From assembly GCA_965263355.1 (NCBI GenBank), contig CBDHHL010000032.1:2752001-2816000 (forward strand): a DNA stretch of 64,000 bases, given 5' to 3'. Source of the DNA: Leptolyngbyaceae cyanobacterium. GTDB taxonomy: Bacteria > Cyanobacteriota > Cyanobacteriia > Phormidesmidales > Phormidesmidaceae. The translations under genes and the position numbers were made by a program. The notes under the pieces were generated by a model. That model saw only the letters and a list, made by a program, of their open reading frames with translations, was not told the origin of the DNA and ran no database searches. Below are positions 1 through 37,400 of this stretch, in pieces (within the stretch, counting starts at the first letter, position 1; the number at the start of each line of letters is the position of its first letter).

Positions 1-312
1 GAAGCCAATTTGTTTAACAGGGGTACGTCTGCTACCTACTTGAAGAGCGAAAAGATTATGGAAGCGATTGAATCCCCTTCCCTGAGAGTTCGTTTAAGAC
101 AAGTAGGACAAAGACCAGAGGCGAGGCGATATGTTAGTAGTCATTGACTGACGTGCGTTGGATAGTCGTCCTCTAGTCCTAGCAGACAAGCCCCATTTTT
201 TGACTTTACGCTTTTCTTGACAGTTGGGATGAGTGAAGATGAGGAGCGATGCGATATGTTAGTAGACATGCAGGCTGTCGCTCGTTGCATAGTCGTCTCC
301 TCGGTTCGTCCC

Positions 313-396
313 CCATAACTGCGTCGGTGCGGACGGAACCAAAGTTATTGCTGAGGATTTAAGGTTATCTGCCGCCGCACAACTTCATCGTTAGCC
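313..396 (+). other. attC-like integron recombination site #1
   Basis: R'' CCATAAC (313-319); arm GTCGGTGCGGACGG pairs imperfectly with CCGCCGCACAAC, with bulged bases; R' GTTAGCC (390-396); 45 bp before the hsdM start. Confidence 0.7.
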
Positions 397-440
397 CAAT
401 AACCTGAAAAGCAGCTTCACCAGGGAAAAAAGACGCATTA

Positions 441-2015
441 ATGGCGAAGAAAACGAAATCAACAAAACAGCAAAAATCCTTTGAGCAAAATCTTTGGGAC
501 ACCGCCGATAAGCTGCGCGGCACGGTGGAATCTTCTGAGTACAAGCATGTGGTCCTCAGTCTGATCTTCCTGAAATTCGTCAGCGATAAATTCGAGACCC
601 AGCGCCAGAAGCTCAAGGACGAGGGCATGGGCGACCACCTAGACATGGTCGAGTTCTACGCCAAGGATAATGTCTTCTACCTACCCGAGGCGGCCCGCTG
701 GTCTACGATCCAAGCGCAATCGAAGCAGGATGATATCGCCCTGCGCATTGATACTGCCCTACATACGGTGGAAAAGACGAATAAGGCGCTGCGCGGTGCG
801 TTGCCGGATAACTATTTCTCCCGTTTGGGCCTGGATACGGCGAAGCTGGCTTCGTTGATCGATTCCATCAGCGATATCGACACGGTGGCGGACAAAGAAG
901 AAGACGTGGTGGGCCGGGTCTACGAATATTTTCTCGGCAAGTTCGCGGCGACGGAGGGCAAGGGCGGCGGCGAGTTTTATACCCCTAAGTGTGTGGTTAA
1001 TCTGAACGCGGAGATGATTGAACCTTACCGGGGCAAGATCTACGACCCCTGTTGTGGTTCGGGCGGTATGTTTGTGCAGTCGGTTAAGTTTGTGCAGAGC
1101 CATCATGGCAACCAGAAGGATATTTCGATTTACGGTCAGGAACAGACGGGTACGACCTACAAGCTGGCCAAGATGAACCTGGCAATTCGGGGGATTGCGG
1201 GCAATTTGGGCGAGGTGCCTGCGGATACGTTCTTCAAGGATCAGCATCCGGATCTAAAGGCGGACTTCATCATGGCGAATCCGCCGTTTAACCTGAAGCA
1301 ATGGCGGGCGGATGATGAACTTACGGATGATCCGCGCTGGGCAGGTTATGAGACGCCGCCCACGGGCAATGCCAACTATGCCTGGATTTTGCACATGGTC
1401 AGCAAGCTTTCGGAGAACGGTGTTGCTGGCTTTGTGCTGGCCAATGGTTCGATGAGTACGAACACAAAGGGGGAGGGTGAGATCCGCCAGAAGCTGATCG
1501 AGAACGATCGCGTTGATTGCATGATCGCGCTGCCGGGCCAGCTTTTTTACACGACTCAGATTCCGGTTTGCCTTTGGTTTTTGACGAAGAATAAGCGGGC
1601 GCAGACGGTCACCAGCCACAGCGAAAGTAACTATCGCGATCGCCAGGGCGAAACCCTATTCATTGATGCTCGCAATATGGGCAGCATGGTCGATCGCACC
1701 CACAAGGAACTAACGGCGGCGGATATTGCCACCATCGCCCGTACTTACCATGCTTGGCGGGGGGAGGCGAAGGATGGAGCCTATGAAGACCAGCCGGGGT
1801 TCTGCAAGGCGGCGACGTTGGCGGATATTAAGGCGAATGACTATGTGCTGACGCCGGGGCGGTATGTGGGGGCGGCGGCGCTGGAGGATGATGGGGTGCC
1901 GTTTGAGGTGAAGATGGGGGAGCTGACGCAGCGGTTGTATGGGCAGATGCGGGAAGCGGAGAAGTTGGATGGGGTGATTCGGAAGAATTTGGAGGCGTTG
2001 GGCTATGGGGAGTAG
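441..2015 (+). CDS. hsdM: Type I restriction-modification methyltransferase subunit M
   Basis: GEFYTP, DPCCGSGGM (SAM binding) and NPPF (N6-adenine MTase) motifs; 524 aa. Confidence 0.95.
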   Translation: MAKKTKSTKQQKSFEQNLWDTADKLRGTVESSEYKHVVLSLIFLKFVSDKFETQRQKLKDEGMGDHLDMVEFYAKDNVFYLPEAARWSTIQAQSKQDDIALRIDTALHTVEKTNKALRGALPDNYFSRLGLDTAKLASLIDSISDIDTVADKEEDVVGRVYEYFLGKFAATEGKGGGEFYTPKCVVNLNAEMIEPYRGKIYDPCCGSGGMFVQSVKFVQSHHGNQKDISIYGQEQTGTTYKLAKMNLAIRGIAGNLGEVPADTFFKDQHPDLKADFIMANPPFNLKQWRADDELTDDPRWAGYETPPTGNANYAWILHMVSKLSENGVAGFVLANGSMSTNTKGEGEIRQKLIENDRVDCMIALPGQLFYTTQIPVCLWFLTKNKRAQTVTSHSESNYRDRQGETLFIDARNMGSMVDRTHKELTAADIATIARTYHAWRGEAKDGAYEDQPGFCKAATLADIKANDYVLTPGRYVGAAALEDDGVPFEVKMGELTQRLYGQMREAEKLDGVIRKNLEALGYGE

Positions 2016-3087
2016 GAAAAGCTCAAAGCTCCAAAAGGGTCAAGGCGCAGACTTACCTGAAACCTCACAACTGGTGCAGGATATCAGACAACTCATTGAT
2101 GGAACCCGTGCGGGGGTAGCAGCTACAGTGAATGCGGGCTTGACCCTGCTGTATTGGCGTGTTGGCGAACGGATTCGCTGTGAAGTGCTCTTGGAAGAAC
2201 GCGCTGAATACGGCCAGAAGATTTTGCCGACACTGTCTGCAAAATTAACGAAGGATTACGGAAGAGGATGGAGTGAGCGTAATCTGGCCTATATGGTTCG
2301 TTTTGTTGAAGTATTTCCACAGATTGAGATTTTGCAGACGCTATGTGCAAATTTGAGCTGGAGCCATTTCAAAGACATTATCTACATTGATGACCCACTG
2401 AAGCGTGAGTTCTATGCGGAGATGTGCCGGGTCGAAGGTTGGAGTGTCCGAACGTTACGGCAAAAAATTGATGGGATGCTCTATGAGCGCACGGCGATCT
2501 CAAAGCAACCTGATGAGGTGATTCAGCATGAGCTAAAGGAACTGAAGGAGGCTGACAAGCTTTCTCCGAATCTGGTCTTTCGTGATCCTTACTTTCTGGA
2601 TTTTCTGGGGCTGAAGGATCGCTACCTAGAGAAGGATTTGGAAGATGCGATTTTGCGAGAGCTGGAAAGCTTTCTGCTGGAGCTGGGCAGTGGGTTTGCG
2701 TTTCTGGCGCGGCAACGGCGTATTCAACTGGATAATGATGACTACTATATCGACCTGCTGTTTTATCATCGCCGCTTAAATCGGCTGATTGCCATCGATC
2801 TGAAGCTGGGGGATTTTAAGGCGGAATATAAGGGGCAGATGGAGCTGTATCTGCGTTGGCTGAGTAAGTATGAAAAGCAAGCGGGGGAGAATGAACCGCT
2901 GGGGCTGATTCTCTGTGCGGGTAAAAAGCAGGAGCTGGTGGAACTGCTGGAGCTAGACCAAGCGGGTATTCATGTGGCGGAGTATTTCACGGAGTTGCCG
3001 CCGAGAAAGTTGCTGGAGGATAAGCTGCATCAAGCCATTGAGAATGCTAGGGAGCGGATTGAAAATAGGGGGAGTGAAGATGAATAA
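2005..3087 (+). CDS. YhcG/DUF1016 PD-(D/E)XK nuclease-domain protein
   Basis: LSWSH, RDPYFLDFL, GFAFLARQ, IDLLFYHRRL...IDLK, GQMELYL motifs. Confidence 0.9.
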   Translation: MGSRKSSKLQKGQGADLPETSQLVQDIRQLIDGTRAGVAATVNAGLTLLYWRVGERIRCEVLLEERAEYGQKILPTLSAKLTKDYGRGWSERNLAYMVRFVEVFPQIEILQTLCANLSWSHFKDIIYIDDPLKREFYAEMCRVEGWSVRTLRQKIDGMLYERTAISKQPDEVIQHELKELKEADKLSPNLVFRDPYFLDFLGLKDRYLEKDLEDAILRELESFLLELGSGFAFLARQRRIQLDNDDYYIDLLFYHRRLNRLIAIDLKLGDFKAEYKGQMELYLRWLSKYEKQAGENEPLGLILCAGKKQELVELLELDQAGIHVAEYFTELPPRKLLEDKLHQAIENARERIENRGSEDE

Positions 3088-3094
3088 GCGGTTA

Positions 3095-3190
3095 GAACTG
3101 ACCCAGACGCTGTATCGGCAGAGGTTGGAGTCGGAGCGGTTGGATGGGGTGATTAAGGAGAGTTTGGAGGGGTTGGGTTATGGAAGGTAA
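3095..3190 (+). repeat. Diverged duplicate of the hsdM 3' end (1920-2015)
   Basis: ELTQTLYRQRLESERLDGVIKESLEGLGYGR* vs ELTQRLYGQMREAEKLDGVIRKNLEALGYGE*. Confidence 0.85.
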
Positions 3191-4094
3191 TTGGCACCAA
3201 AGCACTCTCGGAAACATCGCCAGCCGAGAAGGTAATGGCCTGGTTGATGGTCCTTTCGGCTCAAATCTTCCTGCATCTTCCTACACAGAAACTGGAGTGC
3301 CAGTTATCAGGGGCAGCAACCTGACTCTAGGGTTAGGTCGTTTCAATGCAGAGTCATTTGTTTTCGTCTCAGAAGAAACCTCTCAAAGACTATCTCGAAG
3401 TTTGTGCAAACCACAGGACATTGTTTTCACTAAAAAGGGAACTCTTGGGCAAACTGGATTGATTCCTGAGAATGGCTATGCGCAGTACTTGATTTCTTCA
3501 AATCAAATGAAATTGAGAGTAGACAAGGCCTTAGCCGATCCTCTTTATGTCTATTATTATGTTTCTTCTCCTCAAAGCGTTCAAAAAATATTACGTGACT
3601 CAGAAGCTACTGGTGTTCCTAAAACGAACCTCGCCTACCTGAAAGACTTTCCAATTCAACTACCATCCCTTTCTAAACAAAAAGCGATCGCCCACATCCT
3701 CGGCTCCCTAGACGACAAAATCGAACTCAACCGCCAGATGAACGAAACCCTAGAGGCCATGGCCCAGGCATTGTTCAAGAGTTGGTTTGTGGACTTTGAC
3801 CCGGTGATTGACAACGCCCTGGCCGCAGGCAACCCCATCCCCGAAGCGCTCCAGGCTAAGGCAGCAGCACGGCAGGCCCTGGGCGACAAGCGCAAGCCCC
3901 TGCCCGAGGCGATTCAGCAGCAGTTTCCCAGTGCGTTTGAGTATAGCGATGAGCTGAGCTGGATTCCAAAGGGTTGGAAAGTTTTACCTTTCGCTAGCCT
4001 TGCGCACTTAAACCCAGAATCATGGACAAAAAAGAATGCTCCAGATAAGGTCTTTTATGTTGATTTATCCAACACTAAGAATGGAAAAAAATAA
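3180..4094 (+). pseudogene. hsdS: Type I R-M specificity subunit, truncated early in the second TRD at the IS boundary
   Basis: DGPFGS TRD start and conserved LP..Q..IA.IL.SLDDKIELNRQMN...ALFKSWFVDF spacer; ORF stops immediately before the ISL3 terminal repeat. Confidence 0.85.
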
Positions 4095-5379
4095 GGCTCT
4101 ACCGGATTAATTATGCAGCCACAGTAGGAAAATGCCAACAAATCAGACAACGTAGTCTGAACCGCTCGAAATTTCTGAAGCCATAGCCAGAGCGTTTTAT
4201 CAGCTTCAGGCGATTGTTGATGCCTTCGACGACCCCACTGGTGGTTCTATTCTCAAAGTATTGAATGATCTCGCCAAACCACCGGCTCATGGTTGCAACT
4301 GCTGCCGGGAAAAGGGCCTGAGCATCTGCCATCCAGTCCAAAAAACCGAGCGTTGCTTGGGCACAATTGCCATTGCTAAACAAGGCTCTGAACGCCTCCT
4401 TGTGTTGATGCATCAGCGCCAGTTTAGGCGAAACCGCTTTTACCTCGGCCAGTTTATCTATCTGGAGCTCACTGAGGTTTTCCTCTGGCTTGAGCAAAGC
4501 ATACTTGCTGTTCTTAAGAGCGGCTTTGGCATCCTCAGGAGTGACCCCTTCCGGCAGCCCCTCGGGGGCTCGAATGAAGGCATTACGAGCCTGGTTGAGT
4601 TCTTGATTGACCAACTTCATCACATGAAATCTATCGGCCACAATCTCAGCTTGAGGCATCAGCCGACGCACCAAGCCTCGGTAATTGCCAGACAGGTCAA
4701 TGCTGACCTCCACGATGTTCGATAAGACCTCCTCTCCCCAGGGCTCTAGCACCGCTTTGATGTCGCGATGAGTGCGTGAAGGCGCCATGCCAATCAGTTG
4801 GTGGCTATCGAGGTCACTTAGAACCACCGCAAAGTCCTTGTGACCTTTTCGCACAGCGATTTCGTCGATGCCCAAACGCCGCAGGCCGCTCAGGTCGATG
4901 CGGACTTTTTTTCGCTCATATACTCCACCATTGACCACACCAAGTCTTCACTGAGTCCATGATGACGGGCTACATTGGCTATGTCACTATGAATCACTTG
5001 CCCGACAATCACCTGCGCATATCGGTCAGTGTAACGACGACGCGCACCGACAAAATCAAGCACCTCACTGAAGGGTTTACCGCAGGTCGCACATTTGAAC
5101 TGACGGCGGTTGACTCGCAGCCAAGTCTTGCGATAGTGGCTGATCGGCAGGTCTCTCACCAAATACCCATGATTCTGATGCAGATGGTGGCTCACGCTCC
5201 CACAGCGAGGGCACATGGCAGACTCCTCGTGGGCTTCCACACTCAGAATCAGACCTTCCTCGGTTTCTTCATAGGACTCGACATCAATGTCCGCTAAGCC
5301 CAATAACTCAGTCAGTAGGGGAACCATTGCTGAAACGGTATAGTAATGACTACATCAGCATACTAATTCCTGAAGAGCC
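4095..5379 (-). mobile_element. ISL3-family insertion sequence
   Basis: Imperfect terminal IRs GGCTCTACCGGATTAATTATGC / GCATACTAATTCCTGAAGAGCC enclosing a transposase; no target duplication seen. Confidence 0.9.
4111..5327 (-). CDS. ISL3 transposase split by a frameshift (4890-5327 and 4111-4938)
   Basis: Zn finger CPRC...CATC, GIDE, ADRFHV and EGINNRLKLIKRSGYGFRN motifs; frame changes at an A-run near 4906-4912. Confidence 0.85.
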
Positions 5380-5587
5380 GAACGTATTCAAATAAGAATG
5401 TCTTTTATGCTGGCTGCTTGACACAAGTGCCTCAAACGTAGAATATCTGTAATGAAAATTCGAGATTTTCAGGCGATGTGTCAAGCAATCAGCGTCTTTT
5501 ATGACCTGTAATCTATTGCCTAGTGTGTGTGTTCTGGAAAAATCATCTGAGATATCTAGAATGTTGTATGGTAACTGGGTGTAGGGG

Positions 5588-7305
5588 ATGACGAACAAAG
5601 ATTTATTAGATATACAATCTATTTTGGGAAAGGGGGGTGGTGTGGTTGCTGCACAAGCTATTGCTTCGAATACCGTAATTGAAATTGCTCCTGTTGCTCC
5701 TTTTCCAGCGACAGAGCGTGTGAGTATTGATGCAACCCATCTTGGCAAGTATTATTTTGTTCAGCCAGAAGCTTATCAATATGGAAAAAACGTTGACGGA
5801 TATTTGGTTTTTGAGCAGCCCAAGGAAAAAAGCATCCAATGGTTACCTGATAGCTATGTTGTTGCGGTGACGGGAATTTCAACGAACCATTTTTCTAATC
5901 CTGGCAGTCGTTGCCACTGTTTTTCCAGCTCATCCATAGCACTCGCCGACAAGCTAACCCCGGTCTCGTATATCTGAGTGATCAATTTCACCACCGGGTG
6001 ATTGCCCTTAAAAGTTAACGTGGCCGCAAAGTTCAGTACCGTCTCAACGCTGTCTAGCAGATCCCCATTCCAATGTTGTTCTAACCAACCAAAGGTGCGC
6101 TCAACGGGATTGTATTTACTGTGATAGGGGGGATAATAGGCTAACTGCAAGGGAATGTGTTCTCGATTCACCCACTGCACCAATCGAAACATAAATTGAG
6201 TGCGTCGTGACTGGTTTTCGGGACCGTTGTCGAGATTAATCACCCACTTTTGAATCTGGGGAAACTCAACTTTAATGTCGTTCCACCACTGTTCAAGTAG
6301 GTCAACGAGGCAGTCTGCGGTGACCTTGGAGGTCACAAAGAACAAAGATAAACGGTCGTATTGAGGCAAATAAATCCCCACAGGTGTCAGCGTCTGAGTG
6401 GGCTTAAAATCATGGTCTGCTGCCAGGGTGGGAACCCGATTTTTTTCCCCCTCGGTCATAGTCGCCGATATTAATGGTCGCCTTAGCATCGATGGAAATG
6501 CGCAAGGTCGATTCATCGGCATCCGCCTCCGCATTGACCCGACCCACTTGGTCAAAAATGGCGTCAGTTTCGGGAATTTTCTTTTGGGGTTTGGCTTTGA
6601 TCACTCGTCTTAAACAATAGTTCATCTCATTGAGCCGTTGACGAATCACTTCTGAGGTCGGTAACTCGTCGTCACGATACCCCGTTTGCTCGATCAATTG
6701 ACGACGTACCTCGGGGGCACTGATACGGGTATACAACCGCTCACTGCGTAAACTCGGATCTGCTTGGGTGAAGGGATCGACTATTGCACGAATATCGTCT
6801 TGTAACTTGGGCAACCTCGACTCAACTCGTTTACGTCCTCGACGGCCAAAGGCATCTTCAATCGGAGTCCCACTGGTTAACTCCTGCATCCCTTTACGAA
6901 TCGTGCCACGGTTCCATCCCAACGTCTGTTCGGCACGGGTTTGGCCTCCTATCCCCAACTCCTTGACCACCTTGGCCATAAACTGACGACGATGGGTGCC
7001 CTTTAGCTGGTTGGCGGTTTCTATAAATAGGGCTTTGAGAGAATCAGTTAATTCAAGAGACGTGGATGCCACAGAGCTGATTTAGAAATAGTCGACTGCT
7101 CTGACTATTATAGGATGATTTATTTATTTGGTAGCTCTTTGGCCTTGCTTCGCTATGCAATCATGCCAGCATACCGAATGCAAAAGTTGATTGGGTAACC
7201 AATGAAATTGGCTTGTGGGCCCATCTGACCAGCATTAAAGATATTGCAGCAGGTGAAGAGGTAACTCTCTATTACACCAATATCGATGAGTACCAATTCT
7301 CGTAA
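5588..7305 (+). pseudogene. SET-domain methyltransferase (129 aa when restored) interrupted by IS
   Basis: Joining 5588-5812 to 7141-7305 gives GKGGGVVA...GYLVF|GLASLCNHAS.PNA...DIAAGEEVTLYY, the SET signature motifs. Confidence 0.85.
5813..7137 (-). mobile_element. ISAzo13-like insertion sequence (transposase in two frames, 6410-7072 and 5854-6555)
   Basis: IRs GAGCAGCCCAAGGAAAAAAGCATCC / GGATGATTTATTTATTTGGTAGCTC; TTT target duplication (5810-5812, 7138-7140); ISIDAK, LDNGPEN and YPPYHSKYNPVE motifs. Confidence 0.9.
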
Positions 7306-7344
7306 AAGTACTGTGTAAGTAACTCAAAGTTCAGGGCAGTGTAG

Positions 7345-8244
7345 ATGCAGAAAACAGATTTTTATTTGCTCACTGATGCAAGTATTTTGTGCAGTTACCT
7401 AACCAACCGTTGGTTGGCAAGATTGGGGGAGCATCCTGGATTTTGCGGTGTTGTGGTAAGAGAAAAACGTCCAGATGAATCTGTCTTACAACACCGTCAT
7501 GCATTCCATGCTCAGTACGCAGGAAAACATGAACTATCTGTAGACCAATGGAAGGAACTGATAGCACTGTATCCAACAATTAGTGAGGCAGAGCAAGCCA
7601 CCATAGAGGCTATGGTAAACGCCTATGGGCTTTGTCCGTATGCAGTCAGCGATCACCCAAATACGATCTTCCTTGATCACGATGTAAATAGTGAAGCTGC
7701 TCAAAAATGGCTGCAGTCAATTACTCAAACCACTTCATTGCCTTGGCTATTTAGTTGTATCGGACAAATTTTCAAACCACTTTGGATAGAAACACTGCCT
7801 GGGCGTTTGGTCAATAGCCACACTGCTGTATTGCCTTACGCAAGAGGAATTTACACTATTGAAAATATAGCTGCTACACAAGATATCTCAGCATTGCGAC
7901 AATCTACAGGTTTTACCATTCATTACATAGATGCACAAGTTGATACGGGAGCAATTATTCGCACCGAACGTGTTGTTGATCCCTTTAGATTTGATACTTT
8001 ATGGGATTTGAAAGCGTACATTTACATGAGCAGTTTCGATTGTTACATTAGTACAGCTGAAGCAATAGTTAACTGCTCTGAAACTGTTCCTGCTGGTATT
8101 ATTGCTGACCCGGCTTTGCAAGGGCGCAATTTCAAGAGCAAAGATTTTTCTGTAGCTAAGAAGATTGCTGCAGAAACAGGTTATGCAGCAATGAAGAGAC
8201 TGATTAAATCTAGTGCAACTAGGTTACCTAGTGCATCGAATTAG
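7345..8244 (+). CDS. Formyltransferase-family protein
   Basis: LVNSHTAVLPYARG and GFTIHYIDAQVDTGAII match the formyl-THF transferase N-x-H and H...D-x-G motifs. Confidence 0.8.
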   Translation: MQKTDFYLLTDASILCSYLTNRWLARLGEHPGFCGVVVREKRPDESVLQHRHAFHAQYAGKHELSVDQWKELIALYPTISEAEQATIEAMVNAYGLCPYAVSDHPNTIFLDHDVNSEAAQKWLQSITQTTSLPWLFSCIGQIFKPLWIETLPGRLVNSHTAVLPYARGIYTIENIAATQDISALRQSTGFTIHYIDAQVDTGAIIRTERVVDPFRFDTLWDLKAYIYMSSFDCYISTAEAIVNCSETVPAGIIADPALQGRNFKSKDFSVAKKIAAETGYAAMKRLIKSSATRLPSASN

Positions 8245-8543
8245 AACCTTGAGACTCGATAGTAATAAGTCTTCTTGAGACTCAAGTTATCAGAAGTTTT
8301 ATAGTAAACTACATTCGTTTCGAAGGTTGTGGTAGGTTTGAGCGATTGTTCTTTACTCTCTTCCCAGCCTAAGATTGCGTATAGTGCCTAGCCAGTAATC
8401 CCTTCAAGCAGTAAGTTTTGCTAGTTTGTCTCTATGCATTCTTGCGGCGGGACGGGAGTAGGTGTTCAGATTGGTTAACAACTCTGCAGGAGCAGACGGA
8501 TTGCAAGAATCAGGCATTTTTCACAAAATACTGACCGCCACCC

Positions 8544-8627
8544 AGCTAACATTGCGTTGCAACGGCGGAGCATAAGCAGTTGATCAAAGGCTAAAGTTAC
8601 TACCGCCGTTGAACTTCGCCGTTAGCC
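8544..8627 (+). other. attC-like site #2 (near-canonical)
   Basis: AGCTAAC-N5-GTTGCAACGGCGG ... CCGCCGTTGAAC-N6-GTTAGCC, with one extrahelical G in L''. Confidence 0.85.
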
Positions 8628-9024
8628 ACTTAACAAATACAAGCAAAGGAGATGATGCAGGTAACACAAAATATAAGGAAGATTAAAGAATAATTATTAT
8701 TACCAAACTTAACAGGAACCTCATGGGAAGCGCTACGTCATTGTACTTATGAAACATAAGGTAATCCAGAATGAGAGGACGTGTACGTTTAGACTAACTG
8801 TGTTGCCAATGCTGAATAAATCAGTCGGAAAATAAAATTTATAAACACTTCAAAACTTTAAGATTGTTTAGATCTTAGCTAATTAAGAGATTTGAACGAT
8901 TTCATCAGAAAGCTCGGGTGCACATTTTTATCCGGATCTACTAATCCACTTCAGAATGTTTGCTCAATAAGCATTTCGTGTGGAACTTTGCTTCTGTATA
9001 AGTGTAAATAATGTGGTTGACAAC

Positions 9025-9981
9025 ATGTTTTATAGGTTACCATCAGTACTCTTATTGACCGGTAGTGTTTTCTTTCTCGGTAGTTGTGGGATCAATCAGC
9101 CCACCGCCGACTCTAGCAGCAATACATCAACAGGTGATGCCATTGTTCTAACAGATGTCAGTTTTGATCCAGACTCATTGATTCCTGAGACCCAGCCTGT
9201 TGCTGATTATCTGGCCAATAATCTTAAAAAAGCAGGAATTACAAAAGGTGAAGTCCAAATTGCTCCAGATGTGGATACCGTAGCTGAGTGGATGGCATCG
9301 GGCGAAGTGAATGTCTACTTTGACAGCGTTTTCCCTGCTATGTTGGTGATGGAAAAGGCTGGAGCTACACCCATTTTACGTCGTTGGAAAGACGGTGTCC
9401 CCGAATACAATACTCTCTTTGTTGCTCGTAAAGATAGTAATATAGCTGATTTGACATCTCTGCAAGGAAAGATGATTGCTATGCAGGCTCCCAGCTCTAG
9501 CTCTGGGTTTATGTTTCCCTTGATTGAGCTGATGGATGCTGACTTTAAGCCAGTAGCCAAGACAGAAGCCAATCATCAGGTCGAGGACGATGAGATTGGC
9601 TATGTTTTCTCAGGTGAGGATGAGACAACGGTAGAATGGATTCTCAATGGTAAGGTCCAAGCTGGAGCCTTGGATAGTGAGACTTGGGCAGAAGTCTCTG
9701 ATGCCGATCGAGAAGAGTTAATGGTCATTACTGAAACGGCTAAATATCCTCGACACATGGTAGTGGTTGGTCCCAGCCTGAGCGATGAACAAATTGAGGT
9801 TGTTAAAAATGTTCTGCTGGATATGGAAGATTCAAAACAAGGTCGTGAAGCTCTTGTAGAATTTAGCGAGACCGCTGAGTTTGATGAATTCCCTGAAGGG
9901 GCGGACGAAGCTGTGCTCAAACTTCAAGATGCCTACAACCGTGTCAAAGAGCATTTAGCAGCACAGGAGATTCTCAGCTAA
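9025..9981 (+). CDS. PhnD/phosphonate-type periplasmic substrate-binding lipoprotein
   Basis: Lipobox-like FLGSC after ATG 9025; L.GK.IA....SSSG.M.P motif; ORF-track start 8980 is probably too long. Confidence 0.8.
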   Translation: MFYRLPSVLLLTGSVFFLGSCGINQPTADSSSNTSTGDAIVLTDVSFDPDSLIPETQPVADYLANNLKKAGITKGEVQIAPDVDTVAEWMASGEVNVYFDSVFPAMLVMEKAGATPILRRWKDGVPEYNTLFVARKDSNIADLTSLQGKMIAMQAPSSSSGFMFPLIELMDADFKPVAKTEANHQVEDDEIGYVFSGEDETTVEWILNGKVQAGALDSETWAEVSDADREELMVITETAKYPRHMVVVGPSLSDEQIEVVKNVLLDMEDSKQGREALVEFSETAEFDEFPEGADEAVLKLQDAYNRVKEHLAAQEILS

Positions 9982-9996
9982 AGGCTTTGATTGCCC

Positions 9997-10138
9997 TAGA
10001 CCTGTTGCGATATAAGAACCTAATAGCCTTGAAACCCTTGCTAGTCATAGGCTTCCAGTGACTTCTCGTTGCAAAGCCTGAACCTATTGGCATCAAAGGA
10101 TTTCAGCTATTCTGTTCATCTATTTCGCAACACCTCTA
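9997..10138. mobile_element. MITE-like non-coding element
   Basis: Terminal IRs TAGACCTGTTGCGATATA / TATTTCGCAACACCTCTA, inner IR (AATAGCCTTGAAACCCTTG / CAAAGGATTTCAGCTATT), TA at both ends. Confidence 0.65.
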
Positions 10139-10349
10139 CTGTTTAGTCAATAATTAGTTGGCGTAATTGAACCTCTAATCCCCATGATTGAAATCATGGG
10201 GTAGGTCTCTCTAAAAGTTTGAATGATTAGATCCAGCTTTTTACCATTACTGCTGATTCAAACGATGACTTGGTCTGTTGGTTTTGATTGAATCCAAAGT
10301 ATCCGGTTCAAACTTTCATCGAGAATCAGCAGCATCCGTTCTTTAAAGA

Positions 10350-13064
10350 GTGCTGTTAGCCATGACCCAAGTTAATACAAGACCACATCAGTTAAAAGAT
10401 AACACAGTGTTACAAACAATGATAGGTTGGCTCACAAAACGGCTAACGCCTCAGGGTAAGAGCTTGCGTGCTCAACTGCTAGTCACTATTTTACCCGTAG
10501 TTGTAGGGCCACTGCTCATTGCAAGTGCGGTGGGCTATCGAGTGGTGCAACAGCGGACAGAGGAGCGTTTACAGACTCAGTTAGCTAACCAAGCCTTATT
10601 AGCAAGCGGTGGCACCCGTGCAGTTGTGGATGAATTACTTGCTCTACCACGGGCCATTGCCAGCAGTCCTCTAGTTGTCAATGAAGCCTTAGCCGGTAGT
10701 AATGAGACGGTAAAAGCAGGCTTGGATAAGCTACCGATCGAAGCGCTGGAATCCCAATTTGCCGATAAAAAATTGGTTCGGTTTCACAGAGCGTTGAATG
10801 ATTATCTTCAAGAAACTGTTGAAACGGCTGATATTTCTGAAATCTTAGTCACTAATCGATACGGCTTTAATGTAGCTTACAGTCGTCCCACCACTGACTT
10901 TGTGCAAAGTGATGAGGAATGGTGGCAGCGAGGCAAGGAAGATGGAGTATGGATTAGTCCCCCTGACTTTGACTTTGCAGCTAAAGCTCGGACAGTAGAA
11001 TTAGTGCAGTCTATTATTAATCCTCAGGATGAAAACTTTGTAGGGGTCATTCGTGCAGTTCTGCCTGCTCGGAAGTTTAGCCTGGTAGCAGATTATCTGA
11101 AACGGACAGAAATCAGCGGCAGTCAACGAGTGCAGTTGATCGATGGTGAGACCCTGGGGATCATTGACACATTTTCTCCTCAGGGCTTTCGTAAAGAGGA
11201 GAAGGTCATTGGTGGTGAGACTCTCGAATCTGTGATCATAGCAATTGGTGATATCAAATTTTCATCAGATGCCTTATCTTCAAGTATAGACACCTATGTG
11301 AGTCAAATTGCTGATGCTTTAAGGAATACAAAACAGATTAAGCAATTATCGGTCACGCCATCAGAAAACGATACTGTTCTACTATCTTTTGTCCATGGAG
11401 ACCGATTATATAAAATTGCAACTGTTCCTAACACTCGGTGGTTTGCGATCGCTTCCATGGAAAGTCGAGAAATTGCTACGGCAGGTCAGCAGCTGTTGTT
11501 GTTATTTGTGGCCACAGCTCTCTTGCTAGGTGGGCTAACCTCAGGGTTGATTATATTTCTTGCACGGCAACTGTCGCTGCCGCTGGCCCATCTCTCAGAC
11601 TATAGCAAGCAGGTAGCTGAGGGGAATTTGGCGGTACAGGCAATTCCAGAAGGAACCCGCGAAACCCACGTATTAGCCCATACCTTTAATCAGCTGGTAG
11701 CGAGCACTGCTTCACTGCTCACCGCCCAGGAAGCCGAGACTAAGAAAGCAAACCTTTTTGCTCATATTGCCAGTGCTCCTGCTACCAGTTTAGGTTATAT
11801 TCGAACCATTATTGAAGAGACATTGCCTGATGCACAAGAGATTTTACAGGCAAACCGAATGCTCTTCTATCGCCTAAATCTGAATGGTAGTGGAAATGTT
11901 GAGGCAGAGGTAACCACCGGTACCTATCAGCGGGCAACTAACTATCCTGATCCTAAAGCCATTGTGCCTCCTCGCCTATTGGAGGAAGATACAAAAACAG
12001 CCGTGATTAACGATGTAGCCAAGGTGAATGAACATTCAACCGCCTATCACCAGTGTATGGAGCTGTTGGACGTAAAGTCCAGTTTGATTGTTCCTATGGA
12101 GGTTAATGGCGCATTATATGGTTTTTGGATTGTCCATCATTGTAAGACTATGCATCTATGGCAGCCTGTTGAAATTGCATTTGTAGAGCAATTAGCTGTA
12201 CAGTTTCAGCTTGTATTTGAGCGTTTGCATTCTCTCAATGAAGCCCGGGATGCTCGTCAGGTGAGTGAGGCACTGTCTAACAAATTGAAACAACAGCGCT
12301 CAAGTCTTCAGAAACAGGTGGCTGAGCTGACACAGCTACTTCAGACCCAAACTCCCTCAACAGATTCAGCACCCACACTATCCGAAGACGTATCCATTGA
12401 ACATATTTCTGATCTCTTTCAAGATACGTTTACTCGTCTGCTGCAGCTTGCGGCTAATGTGGAGCACATTAACAGTCAGATGAAAACATCCCTGGCCCAA
12501 ACAGAAGAAACCGCTACCCAGGTGGTTGAGCCGATGAATTGTCAAACCCAGGCGGCATTAGCAATGTTGGAAACGCTGCAACCCATTATTCATACTGTCC
12601 CTGAACTGATTGGTATGGCCAAGCAAGCACTGCAGCGCTGTCGTAGCTTTTCAGGCATTAGTAGCAATCTAGCAAAGCTACATCCCCTGGACTCAAACCA
12701 CATACCGTCTGATGGAGAAACCACTGCCGAAAATCCACAAAAACCGGTTGTATTTCTCGAGCTAGTGCAACGGGAAATGGATAAAATTAACGATACTTTG
12801 GCTAAGATTGAGCAGCAGATCGATAGTAGTTCTAACCAGGTCAAGGATGCTCAGATGCATATGGCAGCCGCATTTAAGGGAGGGCAACAGCTGGATCAGC
12901 TGCTCCAAAGCCTGGCGTTTATCAATGTTAACCAGCTACAAATGACCCAGGCGGTAGATGATTTGATTAAGCTGATGACGCTGTCTGCTGAACGTACTTC
13001 GAGTTTGACTGAGGAAATTGATAGTACCCTTGAGCAGAATACCAATATTAATGTGGTTTCTTAA
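10350..13064 (+). CDS. Membrane sensor: TM-Cache-TM-HAMP-GAF-degenerate MCP-like coiled coil
   Basis: Two TM helices, DFVQSDEEWWQ Cache motif, HAMP, GAF (VKSSLIVP...WQPVEIAFVEQLA), heptad tail without the MCP hairpin tip. Confidence 0.75.
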   Translation: MLLAMTQVNTRPHQLKDNTVLQTMIGWLTKRLTPQGKSLRAQLLVTILPVVVGPLLIASAVGYRVVQQRTEERLQTQLANQALLASGGTRAVVDELLALPRAIASSPLVVNEALAGSNETVKAGLDKLPIEALESQFADKKLVRFHRALNDYLQETVETADISEILVTNRYGFNVAYSRPTTDFVQSDEEWWQRGKEDGVWISPPDFDFAAKARTVELVQSIINPQDENFVGVIRAVLPARKFSLVADYLKRTEISGSQRVQLIDGETLGIIDTFSPQGFRKEEKVIGGETLESVIIAIGDIKFSSDALSSSIDTYVSQIADALRNTKQIKQLSVTPSENDTVLLSFVHGDRLYKIATVPNTRWFAIASMESREIATAGQQLLLLFVATALLLGGLTSGLIIFLARQLSLPLAHLSDYSKQVAEGNLAVQAIPEGTRETHVLAHTFNQLVASTASLLTAQEAETKKANLFAHIASAPATSLGYIRTIIEETLPDAQEILQANRMLFYRLNLNGSGNVEAEVTTGTYQRATNYPDPKAIVPPRLLEEDTKTAVINDVAKVNEHSTAYHQCMELLDVKSSLIVPMEVNGALYGFWIVHHCKTMHLWQPVEIAFVEQLAVQFQLVFERLHSLNEARDARQVSEALSNKLKQQRSSLQKQVAELTQLLQTQTPSTDSAPTLSEDVSIEHISDLFQDTFTRLLQLAANVEHINSQMKTSLAQTEETATQVVEPMNCQTQAALAMLETLQPIIHTVPELIGMAKQALQRCRSFSGISSNLAKLHPLDSNHIPSDGETTAENPQKPVVFLELVQREMDKINDTLAKIEQQIDSSSNQVKDAQMHMAAAFKGGQQLDQLLQSLAFINVNQLQMTQAVDDLIKLMTLSAERTSSLTEEIDSTLEQNTNINVVS

Positions 13065-13277
13065 CCGATTTTCGGTGTATCCACTTCATACGCTTGCAGT
13101 TTTTGACTGAAGGCGTTAAGCCGTTTGTGATGGTCCTCTGGACCGACTTCGCCATCGCTCGATAAATCAATCCGAAATTCAGCCACTTGTTATTTATGAC
13201 CTTAATTCACTTCGCCCGATGACATTCGTAAACAGTTAGTTAGCACAGAAGCTAAAGCTCCTGTTTCAGATGAAGAT

Positions 13278-13835
13278 ATGCAGCAAGCGGTTCGCACGCT
13301 ACTGCTAGGCTTGGGAGAAGACCCTGACCGTGAAGGGTTACGCGACACCCCAAAACGTGTGGTCAAATCCCTAAAGTTTTTAACCTCTGGGTATCATCAG
13401 TCTCTGGATGACCTGCTCAACGGAGCTGTTTTCCATGAGGACACCAATGAAATGGTGCTGGTGCGCGATATTGATTTGTTCAGTGCTTGTGAGCACCATA
13501 TCTTACCGATTTTAGGCCGTATCCATGTTGCCTATATCCCCAATGGCAAGGTAATTGGCCTATCAAAAATTGCCCGCATTTGTGAAATGTATGCGCGACG
13601 GCTACAGTCGCAAGAACGGCTGGCTCGGCAAATTGGTAACGCTCTGCAAGGACTGTTACAGCCCCAGGGGGTGGCAGTTGTTGTTGAAGCATCCCACACG
13701 TGTATAGTGATGCGCGGTGTGCAAAAGCCAGGGGCTTGGACTGTCACCAGTTCGATGCAAGGGTTGTTTGCTGAAGATTCCCGTACGCGTCAGGAATTTA
13801 TGGACCTAATTCGCCTCAACCCATCATTCCATTAA
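13278..13835 (+). CDS. folE: GTP cyclohydrolase I
   Basis: [27 protein letters not shown] and HTCIVMRG motifs. Confidence 0.95.
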
Positions 13836-14413
13836 GGCCTGATTGAAGCGAAGCGTCGAATTACTGTCGTGCAATCTCGGCACAAGTTGCTGAGTCTTGA
13901 CCACCATTGAGAATCGCTAACGGTTTGAATATTGGGTACCTCGTAAATAGTTGTACGGTTTGGTGTTTCCGAAATCTCAACTTGCTGAATCACTGCCAAG
14001 GGGTCTAAAACCTCAAATCTGTTAGCAACAAAGACTGCCATTTCTTCCGTTGTCCCTAACGGACAATCAGGCCAATCATTGACCAGTTTCGGTAACGTCT
14101 TTAACCACTGAATCAGATTATTTTCAGTTTCCACCATGTCGCATCCATACATATCAGTGGCTGACTTTGGCGATTCGCAACAGATCGTAAATATAAAATC
14201 ATGCGGGTGAGGTGTTGCCCATATCGGTGGATTGTGATGCTCAAACCGGGCAACGGTTGTCACTCGATACCGAAAAACTATCTGACGTTGATCAGTTTGT
14301 GGACCTGTAAGAATAACCTTGCGGTAGGGTGGGGTTTGAGCATATCTAAAATTGACAGGATAATGCGATCTTGCTCGTTCCACTCGGACTTCAGGATTAT
14401 TTGACAGTTGCAT
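13832..14413 (-). CDS. Divergent QueD/PTPS-like T-fold protein
   Basis: His...HPH metal-ligand pattern, GTTEEMA and VEISETP resemble 6-pyruvoyl-tetrahydropterin synthase; overlaps the folE stop. Confidence 0.55.
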
Positions 14414-14547
14414 GATTTTTGACGGGTATTCTCTGTAGAAATCTAATTCTGTCCCATCGTAGACAATAATTTGGATCCCATTTACTCTAATAAATTAAAT
14501 TGCCCAATCACCTGAAGGTAGTGCAAGTGGATCTTAGGTTTATCCGT

Positions 14548-15063
14548 CTACCGCTCCAGCAGGCGGGGCATCAACTCCACCAGGTTGCAGGGCCGGTGGC
14601 GAGCATCTAGCTGGTCGTTAATCAGAGCATTCCAGCCGGTGCGGCAAGCCCCCGATGACCCAGGCAAGCAAAAAATATAGGTACCGTTGGCCACCCCTGC
14701 CAGGGCGCGGGACTGCACCGTGGAGGTTTTAATCTCCTGGTAAGACACCATCCGAAAGATTTCGCCAAAGCCGGGGAGTTGTTTATCCAGCAGGGGGGCA
14801 ATGGCTTCAGGAGTGCCGTCCCGCCCGGTCACCCCCGTGCCCCCAGTGGTGATGATGGCCTGCACCCCAGCATCGGCAATCCAGCGGGAGACCACCGCCC
14901 ATATTTGGTAAATATCGTCAGGCACGATCATTTTTTCGGCCAGGGTGTGGCCTGCGGTTTGCAGATGCTCCACCAGCAGTTGGCCAGATTTATCCGTGGC
15001 TTCGGTGCGGCTGTCGGAGACGGTGAGAATGGCGATGGGGACGGGGATAAAGGCGGTGGTCAT
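14548..15063 (-). CDS. moaB: Molybdenum cofactor biosynthesis protein B
   Basis: [26 protein letters not shown] and CNLV motifs. Confidence 0.92.
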
Positions 15064-15272
15064 AGGGCTTTTCTCTAATCAGGGCATGAGAAATTTATAC
15101 TACAAAGTTCCACATAAAGGGGCTTTTCTGGCCAAATTAACAAATACAACCAAAGGAGGTGATGCAGACAAAAAAAAGCATAAAGAAGATTAAAGAATAA
15201 AACAAAGGCAATCATGCAAAGGTTTAAGTCGGCATGATTAAATGTTAATCATTTTGAAAAGCAAAGGAGAAA

Positions 15273-15974
15273 TTGAGTATGCAAGTTAATTCAATTGAGT
15301 TACCAACACATTCTGAACTTCAGACAGTTCTTAAAGACGTTGTGAAAGAAAAAAATGGCGGATTTAGTTTAAATATGTGGGCAACGGTAGTTGATAGAGA
15401 CGGTGTCGTAAAAGCAGTTGTATTCTCAGGTGACGATAGAGGTGACCAATGGCCTGGGAGCCGTGTTATTTCAGCGCAAAAAGCAAATACAGCAAATGCG
15501 TTCAGTCTTCCAGGTTTATCATTGTCAACGGCAAATCTGTTTTCAGCAGTTCAGCCCGGTGGCAATTTATATGGTTTGCAGCACAGTAATCCGGTTGATA
15601 CTAATGTCGCTTATGGTGGGTCATCACATGAATTCGGTACAGAAAACGACCCGATGGTTGGTAAGAAAATCGGAGGAGTGAATGTTTTTGGGGGTGGTTT
15701 AGCTTTGTATCGTGAAGATGGTACGCTGCTTGGCGCAATTGGGGTTAGTGGTGATAGCTCATGTGCGGATCATAATGTCGCATGGAAAGTTCGTCATCAA
15801 CTCAAACTGGACTACGTACCTGCGGGGGTTAGCCCAAACCAGGATGACAATATTATTAATGACATTGTTGATGGTATTAGCTCCGGTGGTTGGGGACATC
15901 CTGCATGTTCGCCCGAAGCAACTGATATAGCTGAAAGTTTTTCCAAAACATATCCAGTGCGATCTAAAAAGTAA
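15273..15974 (+). CDS. GlcG/HbpS-family heme-binding protein (putative gene cassette)
   Basis: ATVVDRDG, ISAQKANTA and FGGGLALY...GAIGVSG motifs; ends 18 bp before attC #3. Confidence 0.8.
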   Translation: MSMQVNSIELPTHSELQTVLKDVVKEKNGGFSLNMWATVVDRDGVVKAVVFSGDDRGDQWPGSRVISAQKANTANAFSLPGLSLSTANLFSAVQPGGNLYGLQHSNPVDTNVAYGGSSHEFGTENDPMVGKKIGGVNVFGGGLALYREDGTLLGAIGVSGDSSCADHNVAWKVRHQLKLDYVPAGVSPNQDDNIINDIVDGISSGGWGHPACSPEATDIAESFSKTYPVRSKK

Positions 15975-15992
15975 ATTATTTTCGACAACAGT

Positions 15993-16064
15993 GGCTAGCA
16001 AGGTGCTGCACCTGATCGCTGTTCCGCTGCACTCCCTAACGGCAGGTGAGCTTCATCGCTAGAG
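15993..16064 (+). other. attC-like site #3 with AGC/GCT core
   Basis: GGCTAGC-N5-GCTGCACCTG ... CAGGTGAGC-N6-GCTAGAG; extrahelical G present. Confidence 0.7.
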
Positions 16065-16270
16065 GACAGAAACAATACTCAGAATGCTAGCGCTTGGTTT
16101 GCCCCTATGCCATATCCTATCAATGCCACTGTTGTCAGACCGAGGCCAATACAGACTGTTGCCAGAGCGCTGACCACTGACAGCCGCTGCATCACTCCAG
16201 TTCCCAAGAGAGATTTTCAAGCCAATGTTGTCCACAAACCGCAGCTAACCCCAGGCCAGTCAACACAGTG
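16058..16270 (-). repeat. Diverged, frameshifted copy of the 3' end and downstream flank of the RcnA-like gene (~18720-18930)
   Basis: Shared CAGACTGTTGCCAGAGCGCTGACCACTGACA core; similarity extends to the GCTAG of the attC R' boxes. Confidence 0.85.
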
Positions 16271-16282
16271 GTAATTTTCTCA

Positions 16283-16687
16283 TCACTCGACCTCCCAGTC
16301 CTCAATCTGTAACCCCTCAACGCGATCAAACTCTCGCGTATTGTGAGTCACCAAAATCAGATTATTAGCCAAAGAGATCGCAGCAATCTGCAAATCATAA
16401 GACCCAATCGGATTCCCCGCACTCGCCAGCTTCGCCCGAATCTGTCCAGCTAACAAAGCCGATTCATCCTCAAACGGTAGTGAAACAAATCGAGATAAAA
16501 ATGCCTGCTGTCGCTCTAATGTCCGCTTTGGGTTGTTACTCCGAAAAGCACCATAAAATAATTCAGCCTTCACCACAGAGCAGACGGCTATTTCCTCGGC
16601 GGGCGTCGCCAACAAACGATCACGCACCGACGCAGAACGACCATTCAGATACACCACACAAACATTAGTATCCAGCAGATAACGCAT
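16283..16687 (-). CDS. vapC: VapC-family PIN toxin
   Basis: YLLDTN, ELFYGA, IGSYDLQIAA and LVTHNTREF motifs. Confidence 0.93.
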   Translation of the reverse strand: MRYLLDTNVCVVYLNGRSASVRDRLLATPAEEIAVCSVVKAELFYGAFRSNNPKRTLERQQAFLSRFVSLPFEDESALLAGQIRAKLASAGNPIGSYDLQIAAISLANNLILVTHNTREFDRVEGLQIEDWEVE

Positions 16688-16689
16688 CC

Positions 16690-16935
16690 CTACTCAAACG
16701 CTCCCGCCAAATCTTCATCTAGCACCTCTGAAATCCCCTCATCATCAATGTTGATAGGATCATCCGTGCAGATTCCATAGAGATCTTCTAAAGACAAGCC
16801 AACAGTTGTAACCACTGGAACAGGCTGATAGATCACCATTACCTCAATATCTAGATCCTTCAGGCCAACCGGAATTTCAAGATACAAAATACCATCTTGC
16901 CCCACCCGCTGACGTACCTTAATGCTTTCCATCAT
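16690..16935 (-). CDS. Putative antitoxin
   Basis: 81 aa with acidic C-terminus, 2 bp upstream of vapC; VGQDGILYLEIP beta-rich N-terminus. Confidence 0.7.
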   Translation of the reverse strand: MMESIKVRQRVGQDGILYLEIPVGLKDLDIEVMVIYQPVPVVTTVGLSLEDLYGICTDDPINIDDEGISEVLDEDLAGAFE

Positions 16936-16947
16936 GGTTGCTTCCTC

Positions 16948-18467
16948 CTAATCAACATCCTCACCCAATTCCTTCAAAATACCCCGCAACTGAGTTAAAG
17001 CAGCCTCCAACTCAGTTATAGCCTCTCGGGCCAGGGTAGCCGGTTCAGGTAAATCCCCCTGCTCCTCCTCGCGATCCCCATTCAGCCAGCTGATATCTAA
17101 ATTATCGCCACGTTCAGCAATCCAATCACGGGAAAAACATCGAAATTCTCCTTCTTCCCCCATATCTTTTCGTTTAGCAAGGCTAGTGGCACTCCCTAAC
17201 GGGTCGGTGCCAAAAGCTACTTCAAACGCCTTAAAGTAATCACGGGTCAAAGCCGTCCGCTTCCCAAACTGAGGTGCATTTGCCCGTAAATCATAGACCC
17301 AGACTGCTTTCGTATTGGCCTTTGCTTTCTTACCACGAGTAAAAAACATTACATTTGTCTTTACACCCTGAGCATAGAAAATACCCGATGGTAAACGCAA
17401 AATCGTGTGTAGATTGCATTTATCCATCAAATCGGTACGAATCTGCCGCCCTACATTGCTCTCAAACAGCACATTATCGGGAAAAATTGCCGCTGTCCGT
17501 CCCCCAGGCTTCAGTCCCAGGTAGATATGCTGCAAAAAGCAAAGCTACTTATTGCTAGTAGGAAATTCAAAATCTGGACGCTCAGGCACTCCTCCACCCT
17601 TTTTGCTACCAAAGGGTGGATTAGTTACGATAAGAGACGCCTGCGGTAAGGCTTGCCCCTCAGGAGATAGCGTATCCCCATAGCGCATACCAGCCTTTTC
17701 AGGATCAGACTCTACACCATGCAGCATCAGGTTCATGCAGCCCATCCGAAATGTGTCTGGCACAAACTCCATGCCGTAGAAGGTATTGGTTTCGTACTTC
17801 TTCTTTTGGGCTGACGTCCAATTCTTAGGATTTTCATGCTCCCGGATATAGCGATTTGCCGAGATCAGAAATCCTCCGGTTCCAGCCGCTGGATCTTGAA
17901 TCACATCCTTCAGCGTTGGGCGCATCACATGCACTATGCTGTCAATCAACGCTCGTGGTGTGAAGTACTGGCCAGCTCCAGCCTTTGCCTCCTTGGAATT
18001 TCTGTCTAACAGCCCTTCATAAATCTCACCCATGCCCTCTTGCTTGGCGTTGTACCAGTCGAGCTTGTCAATCTCAGTGACCAGGGTGTTGAGAGTGGTG
18101 TCTAACAGCCCTTCATAAATCTCACCCATTTGGCGTTTACCAGTATCAATCTCAGTGACCAGTGTTGAGATGGCATTTTTTATATCGCATCAGTAAAAAT
18201 ATTTTGGACCGTCATAGAGCCTTCGTCACATAGATGCTCTAGAAGCCTCTTATAAAACTCAAGCTGTTCGGTTCCCTCTAGAGCCTCTAAATCATCCCAC
18301 CGATATCCTTCTGGCAACTTCAGCTCAATATCAGTCTCCTTTGCCATCTTCAAGAAAAGGAGATAGGTTAGCTCAGTTACATACTGGTGATAAACGATAG
18401 CCCCATCCTTAAGGATGTTGCAAAGATTCCAGAGTTTAGCAACGATGTCATGGGTTGTATTGCTCAT
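16948..18467 (-). pseudogene. hsdM: Second type I hsdM (EcoKI-like), in three fragments
   Basis: KLWNLC, GQYFTPR, DPAAGTGGF, TNPPFG and ILRLPSGIFYAQGVK spread over three ORFs, with scrambled internal duplications at ~18000-18180. Confidence 0.88.
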
Positions 18468-18639
18468 AGCTCCGGTATTTTACCGTTGCTTGGCTTTAGT
18501 TTCAGCCACTTCATGAGTATTAGCTATAGGATGCCGCTCGTTAGGATATCCAGGTCTCTCAACTCCGTCAACTCAATTGCCTTCGATTCCCTGTCAGACC
18601 CCGGATACGATCTCCCGTCAACGACTGCCTTGAACCCCC

Positions 18640-18726
18640 AGCTAACCAGTCGCTGCACCGGAACGCTCAAACATGGTTACTTCAGTCGCGAAGGTTATCT
18701 ATGTCCGGTGAGCTTAGTCGCTAGGT
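18640..18726 (+). other. attC-like site #4
   Basis: AGCTAAC-N5-GCTGCACCGGA ... TCCGGTGAGC-N6-GCTAGGT. Confidence 0.75.
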
Positions 18727-18774
18727 GACGGGTGACAAGAGTCAGGATGGCTAGCGACTGGTTTATCCCTATCC

Positions 18775-27332: not shown

Positions 27333-27402
27333 AAGTCTGCGCTGTTGATGGGGCTATATTCTCCAATCCCTTTAATCTCCAGATGATATCTCTTCATCTC
27401 CC

Positions 27403-37387: not shown

Positions 37388-37400
37388 ATCATTATGCCTT

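Follow-up and report, generated by a model that had tools for sequence, protein, structure and literature searches.

The four attC sites

We analyzed a 64-kb stretch of DNA (the window), whose left part carries four integron attC recombination sites, denoted s1 to s4, the last of which lies just past the 3' end of a gene that we label rcnA-like on the basis of its Pfam NicO match. All four lie on the + (top) strand, separated by intervals of 8148, 7366, and 2576 bp, and a truncated fifth site adjoins s2. Scores are those of our covariance model, R1.

313-396, + strand: attC s1, 84 bp, R''-L'' spacer of only 3 nt, crossover G at 390, 51.6 bits
8473 to about 8545, + strand: truncated fifth attC (left arm and centre), adjoining s2, 12.1 bits
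8544-8627, + strand: attC s2, 84 bp, canonical GTT, crossover G at 8621, 51.7 bits
15993-16064, + strand: attC s3, 72 bp, GCT, crossover G at 16058, 30.5 bits; belongs to the HbpS cassette
18640-18726, + strand: attC s4, 87 bp, GCT, crossover G at 18720, 46.9 bits; the upstream cassette open reading frame (ORF) is gone

The original prediction had read four + strand palindromes at exactly these coordinates as attC sites, and the covariance model and the folds agree with it: all four are genuine integron attC sites. R1 was trained on 12 attC sites from other genomes and none from the window, its training set shows covariation, and it is distinct from IntegronFinder's own attC model, with which the check had been proposed. 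In the 64-kb window, R1 found exactly these four sites (E-values from 3e-11 to 1e-5, with a rough calibration), the runner-up scoring 9.8 bits. Moreover, constrained bottom-strand folds of each site pair the R box and L box at 10/10 positions and leave an extrahelical C (the top-strand G), the probabilities of the recombinogenic fold being 0.03 (s1), 0.16 (s2), 0.72 (s3), and 0.012 (s4). The predicted layout of R''-N5-L'' and L'-N6-R' is corrected for s1, in which the R''-L'' spacer is 3 nt rather than 5.

The available text on attC criteria gives an R'' core of RYYYAAC, an R' core of GTTRRRY, and a length of 57-141 bp, and describes the T-N6-C extrahelical type as excisable by IntI1 (PMC3053210). 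Our four sites measure 72-87 bp; s1 and s2 carry the GTT crossover, and s3 and s4 carry a variant GCT, whose changed second position is, in the available text of PMC2811028, tolerated by IntI1. Both s1 and s4 have the first extrahelical T, which is less clear in s2 and s3. A geometry scanner in its loose setting gave 5 matches in the window vs 1-6 per simulated window (n=20), which is chance level, and in its strict setting it gave 2 (s2 and s3, with s1 missed) vs 0 in 20 simulated windows. An Rfam search of the window returned no match.

The sites are distinct from one another (50-65% pairwise identity), and each has counterparts elsewhere. A homolog of s1 in genome G392 has the left flank and the short spacer in common with it, with similarity ending just past GTT; copies of s2, 88-91% identical, are present in several family genomes; s3 is 85% identical to the sites after hbpS in loci L081 and L082; s4-like sites (72-80% identical) occur elsewhere in many family genomes; and the truncated fifth site (E = 0.004 in a local 316-nt search) resembles an attC of G193. 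The R'' of s3 (15993-15999) reads AGC where L081 and L082 have AAC, which restores Watson-Crick pairing with GCT (16058-16064) and is a possible compensatory change. Just left of s1 lies a degenerate direct repeat (81%; 121-170 and 246-297), with a GTTAG core in each copy.

Short-read contigs of two sequencing runs, X1 and X3, which may be the window's own source, match most of 296-18844 near letter-for-letter, so the layout is not an assembly artefact. An artefactual duplication behind s3 and s4 was likewise ruled out, by the 83% identity between the copies together with the contig support. Probable errors in the window lie at 18097-18186, where 23 letters replace 88 in the contigs of two runs, and at 19058-19104, where the rcnA-like gene has several indels; the frameshift of that gene in the window is probably a sequence error. 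Exact tandem or near-tandem repeats at 21754-21881 (64 nt, twice) and 43606-43745 (41 nt, twice) are possibly assembly errors.

The rcnA-adjacent position and the HbpS cassette

Four further features, bordering s2, s3, and s4, bear on how the sites came to be there.

8622-8702, + strand: start of an HbpS-type cassette remnant (core site and leader), aligning from the crossover with the cassette starts of L084, L081, and L083
15137-15974, + strand: HbpS/GlcG heme-binding cassette, leader (core site lost) and ORF at 15273-15974; PF03928
16059-16266, - strand: landing flank and 156-nt rcnA-like 3'-end remnant, 83% identical to 18707-18930
18721-19368, - strand: second landing-flank copy and gene for the rcnA-like Ni/Co transporter, with its stop at 18775; the L081 orthologue matches PF03824 and PF13386

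The segment at 16045-16266 repeats that at 18707-18930 with 83% identity and comprises (i) the right end of the attC site, (ii) a 55-bp flank, and (iii) the 3' end of the rcnA-like gene. On this comparison, we take s3 and s4 to be two alleles of one position, just past the rcnA-like gene. Relatives have other attC sites in front of this flank, together with other genes: two different alpha/beta hydrolases, a pair with a PIN domain, a Gp49-type pair, and unnamed ORFs. Fourteen junction copies, drawn from 10 genomes or records together with L081 and the window, comprise 10 attC types (9 without a weak G432 match), which are 45-63% identical between types and so resemble one another no more than shuffled sequences do (mean 48, maximum 60). 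The 45 nt to the right of the crossover are 55-97% identical in 13 of the 14 rows, and the crossover triplet is GTT in 8 copies, GCT in 4, and another in 2. Between G280 and G419, the attC is 100% identical and the left flank 97%, with only 75% identity in the right flank. Furthermore, G421, G415, G416, and G509 have empty alleles, in which moaB directly follows rcnA, and the same arrangement is seen in an X1 contig of low depth, where 15056 is joined to 18783. The claim that the sites mark gene-content breakpoints between strains is thus upheld by comparison with the relatives' loci.

The rcnA 3' end is itself repeated. It is present two or three times, with toxin-antitoxin modules between the copies, in 10/27 relative loci, the remnants being 69-236 nt long, and G413 has two units of attC, flank, and rcnA end, 6.4 kb apart. 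By a hand tally, in which 9 of the matches were training sequences recovered in a two-strand scan, 28/32 R1 matches around rcnA (E<=0.01) have the polarity seen in the window, and the other four lie 15-20 kb upstream of rcnA. The exact degenerate flank pattern has 7 matches in 5/172 genomes, 6 of which adjoin an rcnA end; the seventh, in G533, lies in a short locus with no rcnA match, beside a neighbouring gene of the same region. Two other identities for the flank were rejected: that it is the right half of an attI, as no flank match exceeds 14 nt in 30 intI loci, and that it is a repeat occurring elsewhere, as nearly all pattern matches (6/7) adjoin rcnA ends.

The HbpS gene ties this position to s2. 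The remnant that starts after s2 is complementary to the s3 R'' in 9/10 letters. A complete HbpS cassette of 916 bp, with ends complementary in 10/10 letters, is present in L084, and in L087 hbpS lies within an array, with two more attC downstream; through these two loci, the gene has the ORF, the attC, and the complementary start of a cassette that is mobile in other arrays. In the window, the intact hbpS at 15137 lacks its core site and is joined to the upstream DNA of moaB, and in L081 a decayed attC (21 bits) lies directly upstream of hbpS. Since an HbpS cassette start follows s2, s2 and s3 were probably neighbours formerly. The two closest metagenome loci to hbpS, L081 and L082, represent the same cyanobacterial locus as the window, and an attC-like sequence follows the gene in 5/12 of the closest metagenome loci inspected. 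None of the named matches among the best 120 is cyanobacterial (77-86% identity; e.g., Desulfosarcina and Microbulbifer), and a plasmid search gave only 2 matches, both weak, to hbpS.

The region is apparently a set of scattered cassette remnants in a variable spot of a marine cyanobacterium chromosome and not one working array. In the explanation that we favour, with a probability of roughly two-thirds, these genuine attC sites were left in a chromosomal insertion hotspot, thrS - rcnA-like - moaB, which was built by two processes and is now a decaying mosaic. In the first process, IntI-mediated recombination would have inserted or exchanged cassettes time and again at a single position, ∼55 bp beyond the rcnA stop, so that lineages have the flank in common but differ in the unit of gene and attC that adjoins it at the G|TT crossover; further cassettes would have joined at an existing attC, giving local co-orientation. 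The pattern of different attC units on one flank is seen directly, and the exact position of the exchange at the crossover, which is a signature of IntI, points to IntI as its agent. The position of IntI cleavage on attC has been described (PMC2811028, in its available text).

In the second process, pieces of the locus from related strains would have entered through homology in rcnA or hbpS, with an illegitimate joint on the other side, each entry leaving a gene remnant and moving older attC sites apart. Such stacking of alleles by homology-anchored recombination is suggested because tandem rcnA 3'-end remnants recur in the relatives' loci, and their variable lengths are compatible with homologous integration on one side and an illegitimate joint at the far end. 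Homology-facilitated illegitimate recombination has just this form: one side is anchored by homology, and the joint on the other is illegitimate and variable. In the simplest history, a short array (s2, hbpS, and s3) at the rcnA flank would have been split by incoming alleles; s2 probably lay directly upstream of the HbpS cassette until ∼6.5 kb of chromosomal genes intervened, and s1 would be an additional orphan cassette end.

Several observations weigh against this account. Of the 25 contig joints, none of the 15 examined links two attC crossovers (contigs drop rare forms), and no recombination event was seen. The flank lacks the attG motif CRGM at +6 to +9, and the s3 and s4 alleles have GCT, not GWT. 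Many rcnA remnants share joints by descent, which makes independent events far fewer than copies. Downstream of s2, the similarity to the HbpS cassette start is clear over ∼80 bp only, and 7/12 of the closest hbpS loci inspected lack an attC behind hbpS. An rcnA-targeting site-specific element may be an alternative source, and s1 may be unconnected with the rcnA locus.

Many terminal attC sites on one flank and a uniform polarity are also what a decayed sedentary integron would leave behind, with the rcnA flank as the fixed right end of an ancestral full integron, excisions varying the last attC, and intI being lost later. Family integrons are indeed loosely spaced (in G203, a complete integron has 5 attC over 10.5 kb with insertion sequences), and Xanthomonas clusters at conserved positions have been read as ancestral integron activity, according to the available text of that study (10.1101/2025.06.18.660453). 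Yet no IntI match lies on the rcnA contigs or in the rcnA loci (many of these contigs being short), and the intI loci do not share the flank beyond the 14 nt mentioned above. Moreover, empty alleles exist, identical cassettes sit on divergent flanks, and the duplicated units of flank and rcnA end are left unexplained; we consider a decayed integron unlikely.

The DNA between the sites

The intervals contain the following genes.

441-4094, + strand: type I restriction-modification genes hsdM (441-2015), yhcG (2005-3087), and hsdS (3180-4094), cut by ISL3; Pfam, PADLOC
4111-5327, - strand: ISL3-family transposase, two ORFs; Pfam DDE_Tnp_ISL3
5588-8244, + strand: SET-domain gene, split by ISAzo13 at about 5854-7130, and formyltransferase gene at 7345-8244; Pfam
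8980-15063: chromosomal block of a phosphonate-type binding protein, a Cache/HAMP/GAF sensor, folE, a queD-like gene, and moaB; Pfam; no attC
16283-18524, - strand (opposite to the attC direction): vapC, an antitoxin-like ORF, and a broken second hsdM, whose stop at 17545 is supported by the contigs; Pfam

In the original prediction, these sites form one active cluster of attC sites lacking a nearby integrase (CALIN). An IntI elsewhere in the genome would move its three intervals (8.2, 7.4, and 2.7 kb) as cassettes. The window itself has no integrase: neither IntI nor an IntI remnant was found in six frames of the 64-kb window, in which s1 lies only 312 bp from the left end, and the window holds no complete integron with intI and attI in cis. 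In favour of cassettes are (i) the ability of all four sites to fold recombinogenically, (ii) the 9/10 complementarity of the ends of the s2-s3 unit, (iii) the tolerance of IntI1 for GCT noted above, and, weakly, (iv) an X1 contig that begins at 8620, one base before the s2 crossover. Another X1 contig ends 30 bases later, and a graph branch at 8620 is consistent with a different left neighbour in the sample. X1 depth steps across 8620 from 7.9 to 21.7, a contig-derived figure that we do not take as copy number.

The gene content speaks against this model. End complementarity falls to 6/10 for s1-s2 and 5/10 for s3-s4, and the intervals hold insertion sequences, antisense genes, and housekeeping genes, s2-s3 being mostly chromosomal genes, so they do not form an array of gene cassettes. 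Homologs of the blocks are likewise found apart from attC: the G405 homolog of the hsdM-yhcG-hsdS block, 90-92% identical, has no attC nearby; the SET/formyltransferase pair, the best-scoring named homologs of which are cyanobacterial, is intact without attC in G447 and G431; the homologs of the chromosomal block in relatives also lack attC; and the vapC-hsdM block recurs in G392, G405, and G288, with no attC near the block in G392 or G405. Altogether, R1 found no attC in 15 loci with homologs of the SET/formyltransferase, hsdM, or vapC-hsdM blocks. Furthermore, excision can drop for cassettes of >=1.5 kb with a poorly folding site, according to the available text of PMC5371416. An active CALIN is therefore improbable. 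The HbpS gene is, by its counterparts in other arrays, the only proven cassette here, and the restriction-modification, SET/formyltransferase, VapC-hsdM, and housekeeping intervals are probably not cassettes.

The CALIN label holds in part. In the available text of Cury et al. (2016; PMC4889954), a CALIN comprises at least two same-strand attC sites <4 kb apart without a nearby intI. The co-oriented s3 and s4, 2.6 kb apart, fall formally within this rule, as do s2 and its truncated neighbour, but the set of four does not: from s1 and from s2 it is 7-8 kb to the next site, and what separates s3 from s4, unlike a cassette array, is a non-cassette block in antisense, flanked by two copies of one position. 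A pair of sites that formally counts as a CALIN can thus represent two alleles of a single site instead of an array.

Family background and relation to known systems

The assignment of the host to the cyanobacteria is confirmed by the relatives of its MoaB and ThrS. MoaB shares a 90% cluster with proteins named Leptolyngbya and Phormidesmis, and the host looks like a Leptolyngbya/Phormidesmis-type cyanobacterium on this evidence. Among 401 genomes searched, the nearest by ThrS are G288, G280, G173, and G193 (90-93%); in a further scan of contig collections, the best ThrS among the matches listed reach 70-72%. IntI (TIGR02249) exceeds the cut-off in 65/172 genomes of the family of G280 vs 0/14 controls, and the close relatives G280 and G419 have cassettes at the rcnA position and no IntI match. 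The intI genes of the family are diverse, mostly at 67-75% nucleotide identity (loci L231-L260), with up to 5 matches per genome, many of which have stops or lie at contig ends.

An R1 search of five family genomes, with 150 candidates scored per genome, found at least 40, 38, 25, 39, and 11 dispersed attC sites. Their density is 1.8-6.4 per Mb, and about half to two-thirds are singletons by the 4-kb rule. Neighbouring sites, counted over 150 of the 153 attC matches, share a strand in 40/40 pairs <4 kb apart, in 22/26 at 4-20 kb, and in 28/72 beyond 20 kb; replication-strand bias was rejected as the cause of co-orientation, there being no long-range bias in the last class. Dispersed attC sites and loose co-oriented groups are thus ordinary for this family, and four in 18 kb are not a matter of chance. 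The prediction had named genome-wide scattering unrelated to gene-content breakpoints as what would refute it; the scattering, one half of that condition, is real in the relatives, at 11-40 sites per genome, and the link to breakpoints nevertheless holds.

This background is what would make four independent single insertions conceivable, the sites (single attC sites lacking an integrase, SALINs) lying close by chance in an attC-rich, insertion-tolerant region, and about half or more of the attC matches in the relatives' genomes are singletons. At 2-7 sites per Mb, however, three more sites would fall within 18.4 kb with a Poisson probability of only 8e-6 to 3e-4; moreover, a homologous flank is common to s3 and s4, and the HbpS cassette ends connect s2 with s3. 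We regard independent insertion of all four as very improbable; it is contradicted for s2 to s4 and may still apply to s1.

A clade-wide cassette landing pad beside rcnA, operating in two steps, can be tentatively proposed, although we think it rather doubtful. Strains with IntI would load cassettes, and strains with or without IntI would swap and stack the loaded alleles through natural transformation, the 3' end of rcnA serving as homologous anchor, with joints possibly favoured near the palindromic octamer HIP1 (highly iterated palindrome 1). The same process would have enclosed 6.5 kb of host genes between cognate HbpS ends (8622-16058), making an excisable 7.4-kb unit. If true, this would be a testable route for cassette spread without an integrase and for host genes to become cassette cargo.

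Known systems resemble the locus in part. The SALINs and attG sites of Loot et al. (10.1101/2022.09.11.507474), as far as the available text describes them, are like it in having isolated cassettes joined to the chromosome at the crossover, a description that the HbpS cassette fits. Here, in contrast, a single target has taken up no fewer than 9-10 types of cassette within a clade and was itself duplicated, and two alleles have GCT, not GWT; by eye, the flank shows no attG hotspot (GWT with CRGM at +6 to +9). The Xanthomonas CALINs beside lamG and secF (10.1101/2025.06.18.660453, available text) likewise are attC clusters at fixed loci away from intI across species, whereas here intI is diverse and patchy, and tandem duplication has affected the 3' end of the anchor gene together with the attC. 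An attC model specific to Cyanobacteria has been made, and attC sites are known in the phylum (Ghaly et al. 2021, PMC8352920); in its available text, that work kept only clustered sites (<=4 kb), and dispersed sites or a locus like this one are not described. Homology-facilitated illegitimate recombination, with its anchor and variable joint, would leave 3'-end remnants of variable length, as seen here, but its tie to an integron landing site is our own proposal.

Our literature search, with subscription papers mostly outside its reach, gave no description of this family's integrons, of the rcnA locus, or of an anchor-gene duplication with attC; strains of this family may be among the genomes listed in the SALIN, Cury, and Ghaly papers. 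The locus would appear, from these comparisons, to hold known elements in a previously unreported, lineage-wide landing site, with loaded alleles stacked through anchor-gene recombination. It offers a natural comparative example in which cassettes gather at a fixed chromosomal site other than attI and later move together with the anchor gene, in a cyanobacterial family with common IntI and attC sites scattered genome-wide.

The rcnA remnants end in about 9-10 classes of joint, two of which lie inside a HIP1 octamer and three more within ∼15 nt of one. The stretch of the rcnA 3' end concerned lies 218-225 nt from the stop (window 18992; L082, L195, L261, L262, L265, L270, L273, L277, L278, and L280). 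The window's own joint (156 nt) is outside HIP1, and a HIP1 lies 27 nt inside the homocitrate-synthase-like duplication described below. A link between HIP1 and the duplication joints is suggestive only, and the role of HIP1 in recombination is, in the available text of PMC13756078, still open.

Two further gene 3'-end duplications enclose accessory genes, which makes three in 64 kb with that of rcnA. One, of a homocitrate-synthase-like gene (37116-37392 and 38582-38857; 92-94%), surrounds a DUF6036 nucleotidyltransferase pair, and the other, of hsdM (1920-2008 and 3095-3183; 79%), surrounds yhcG. Finally, a gene pair for a polyketide synthase (PKS) and a fatty-acyl-AMP-ligase-PKS, as judged from the translations, occupies 25470-36033 on the minus strand.

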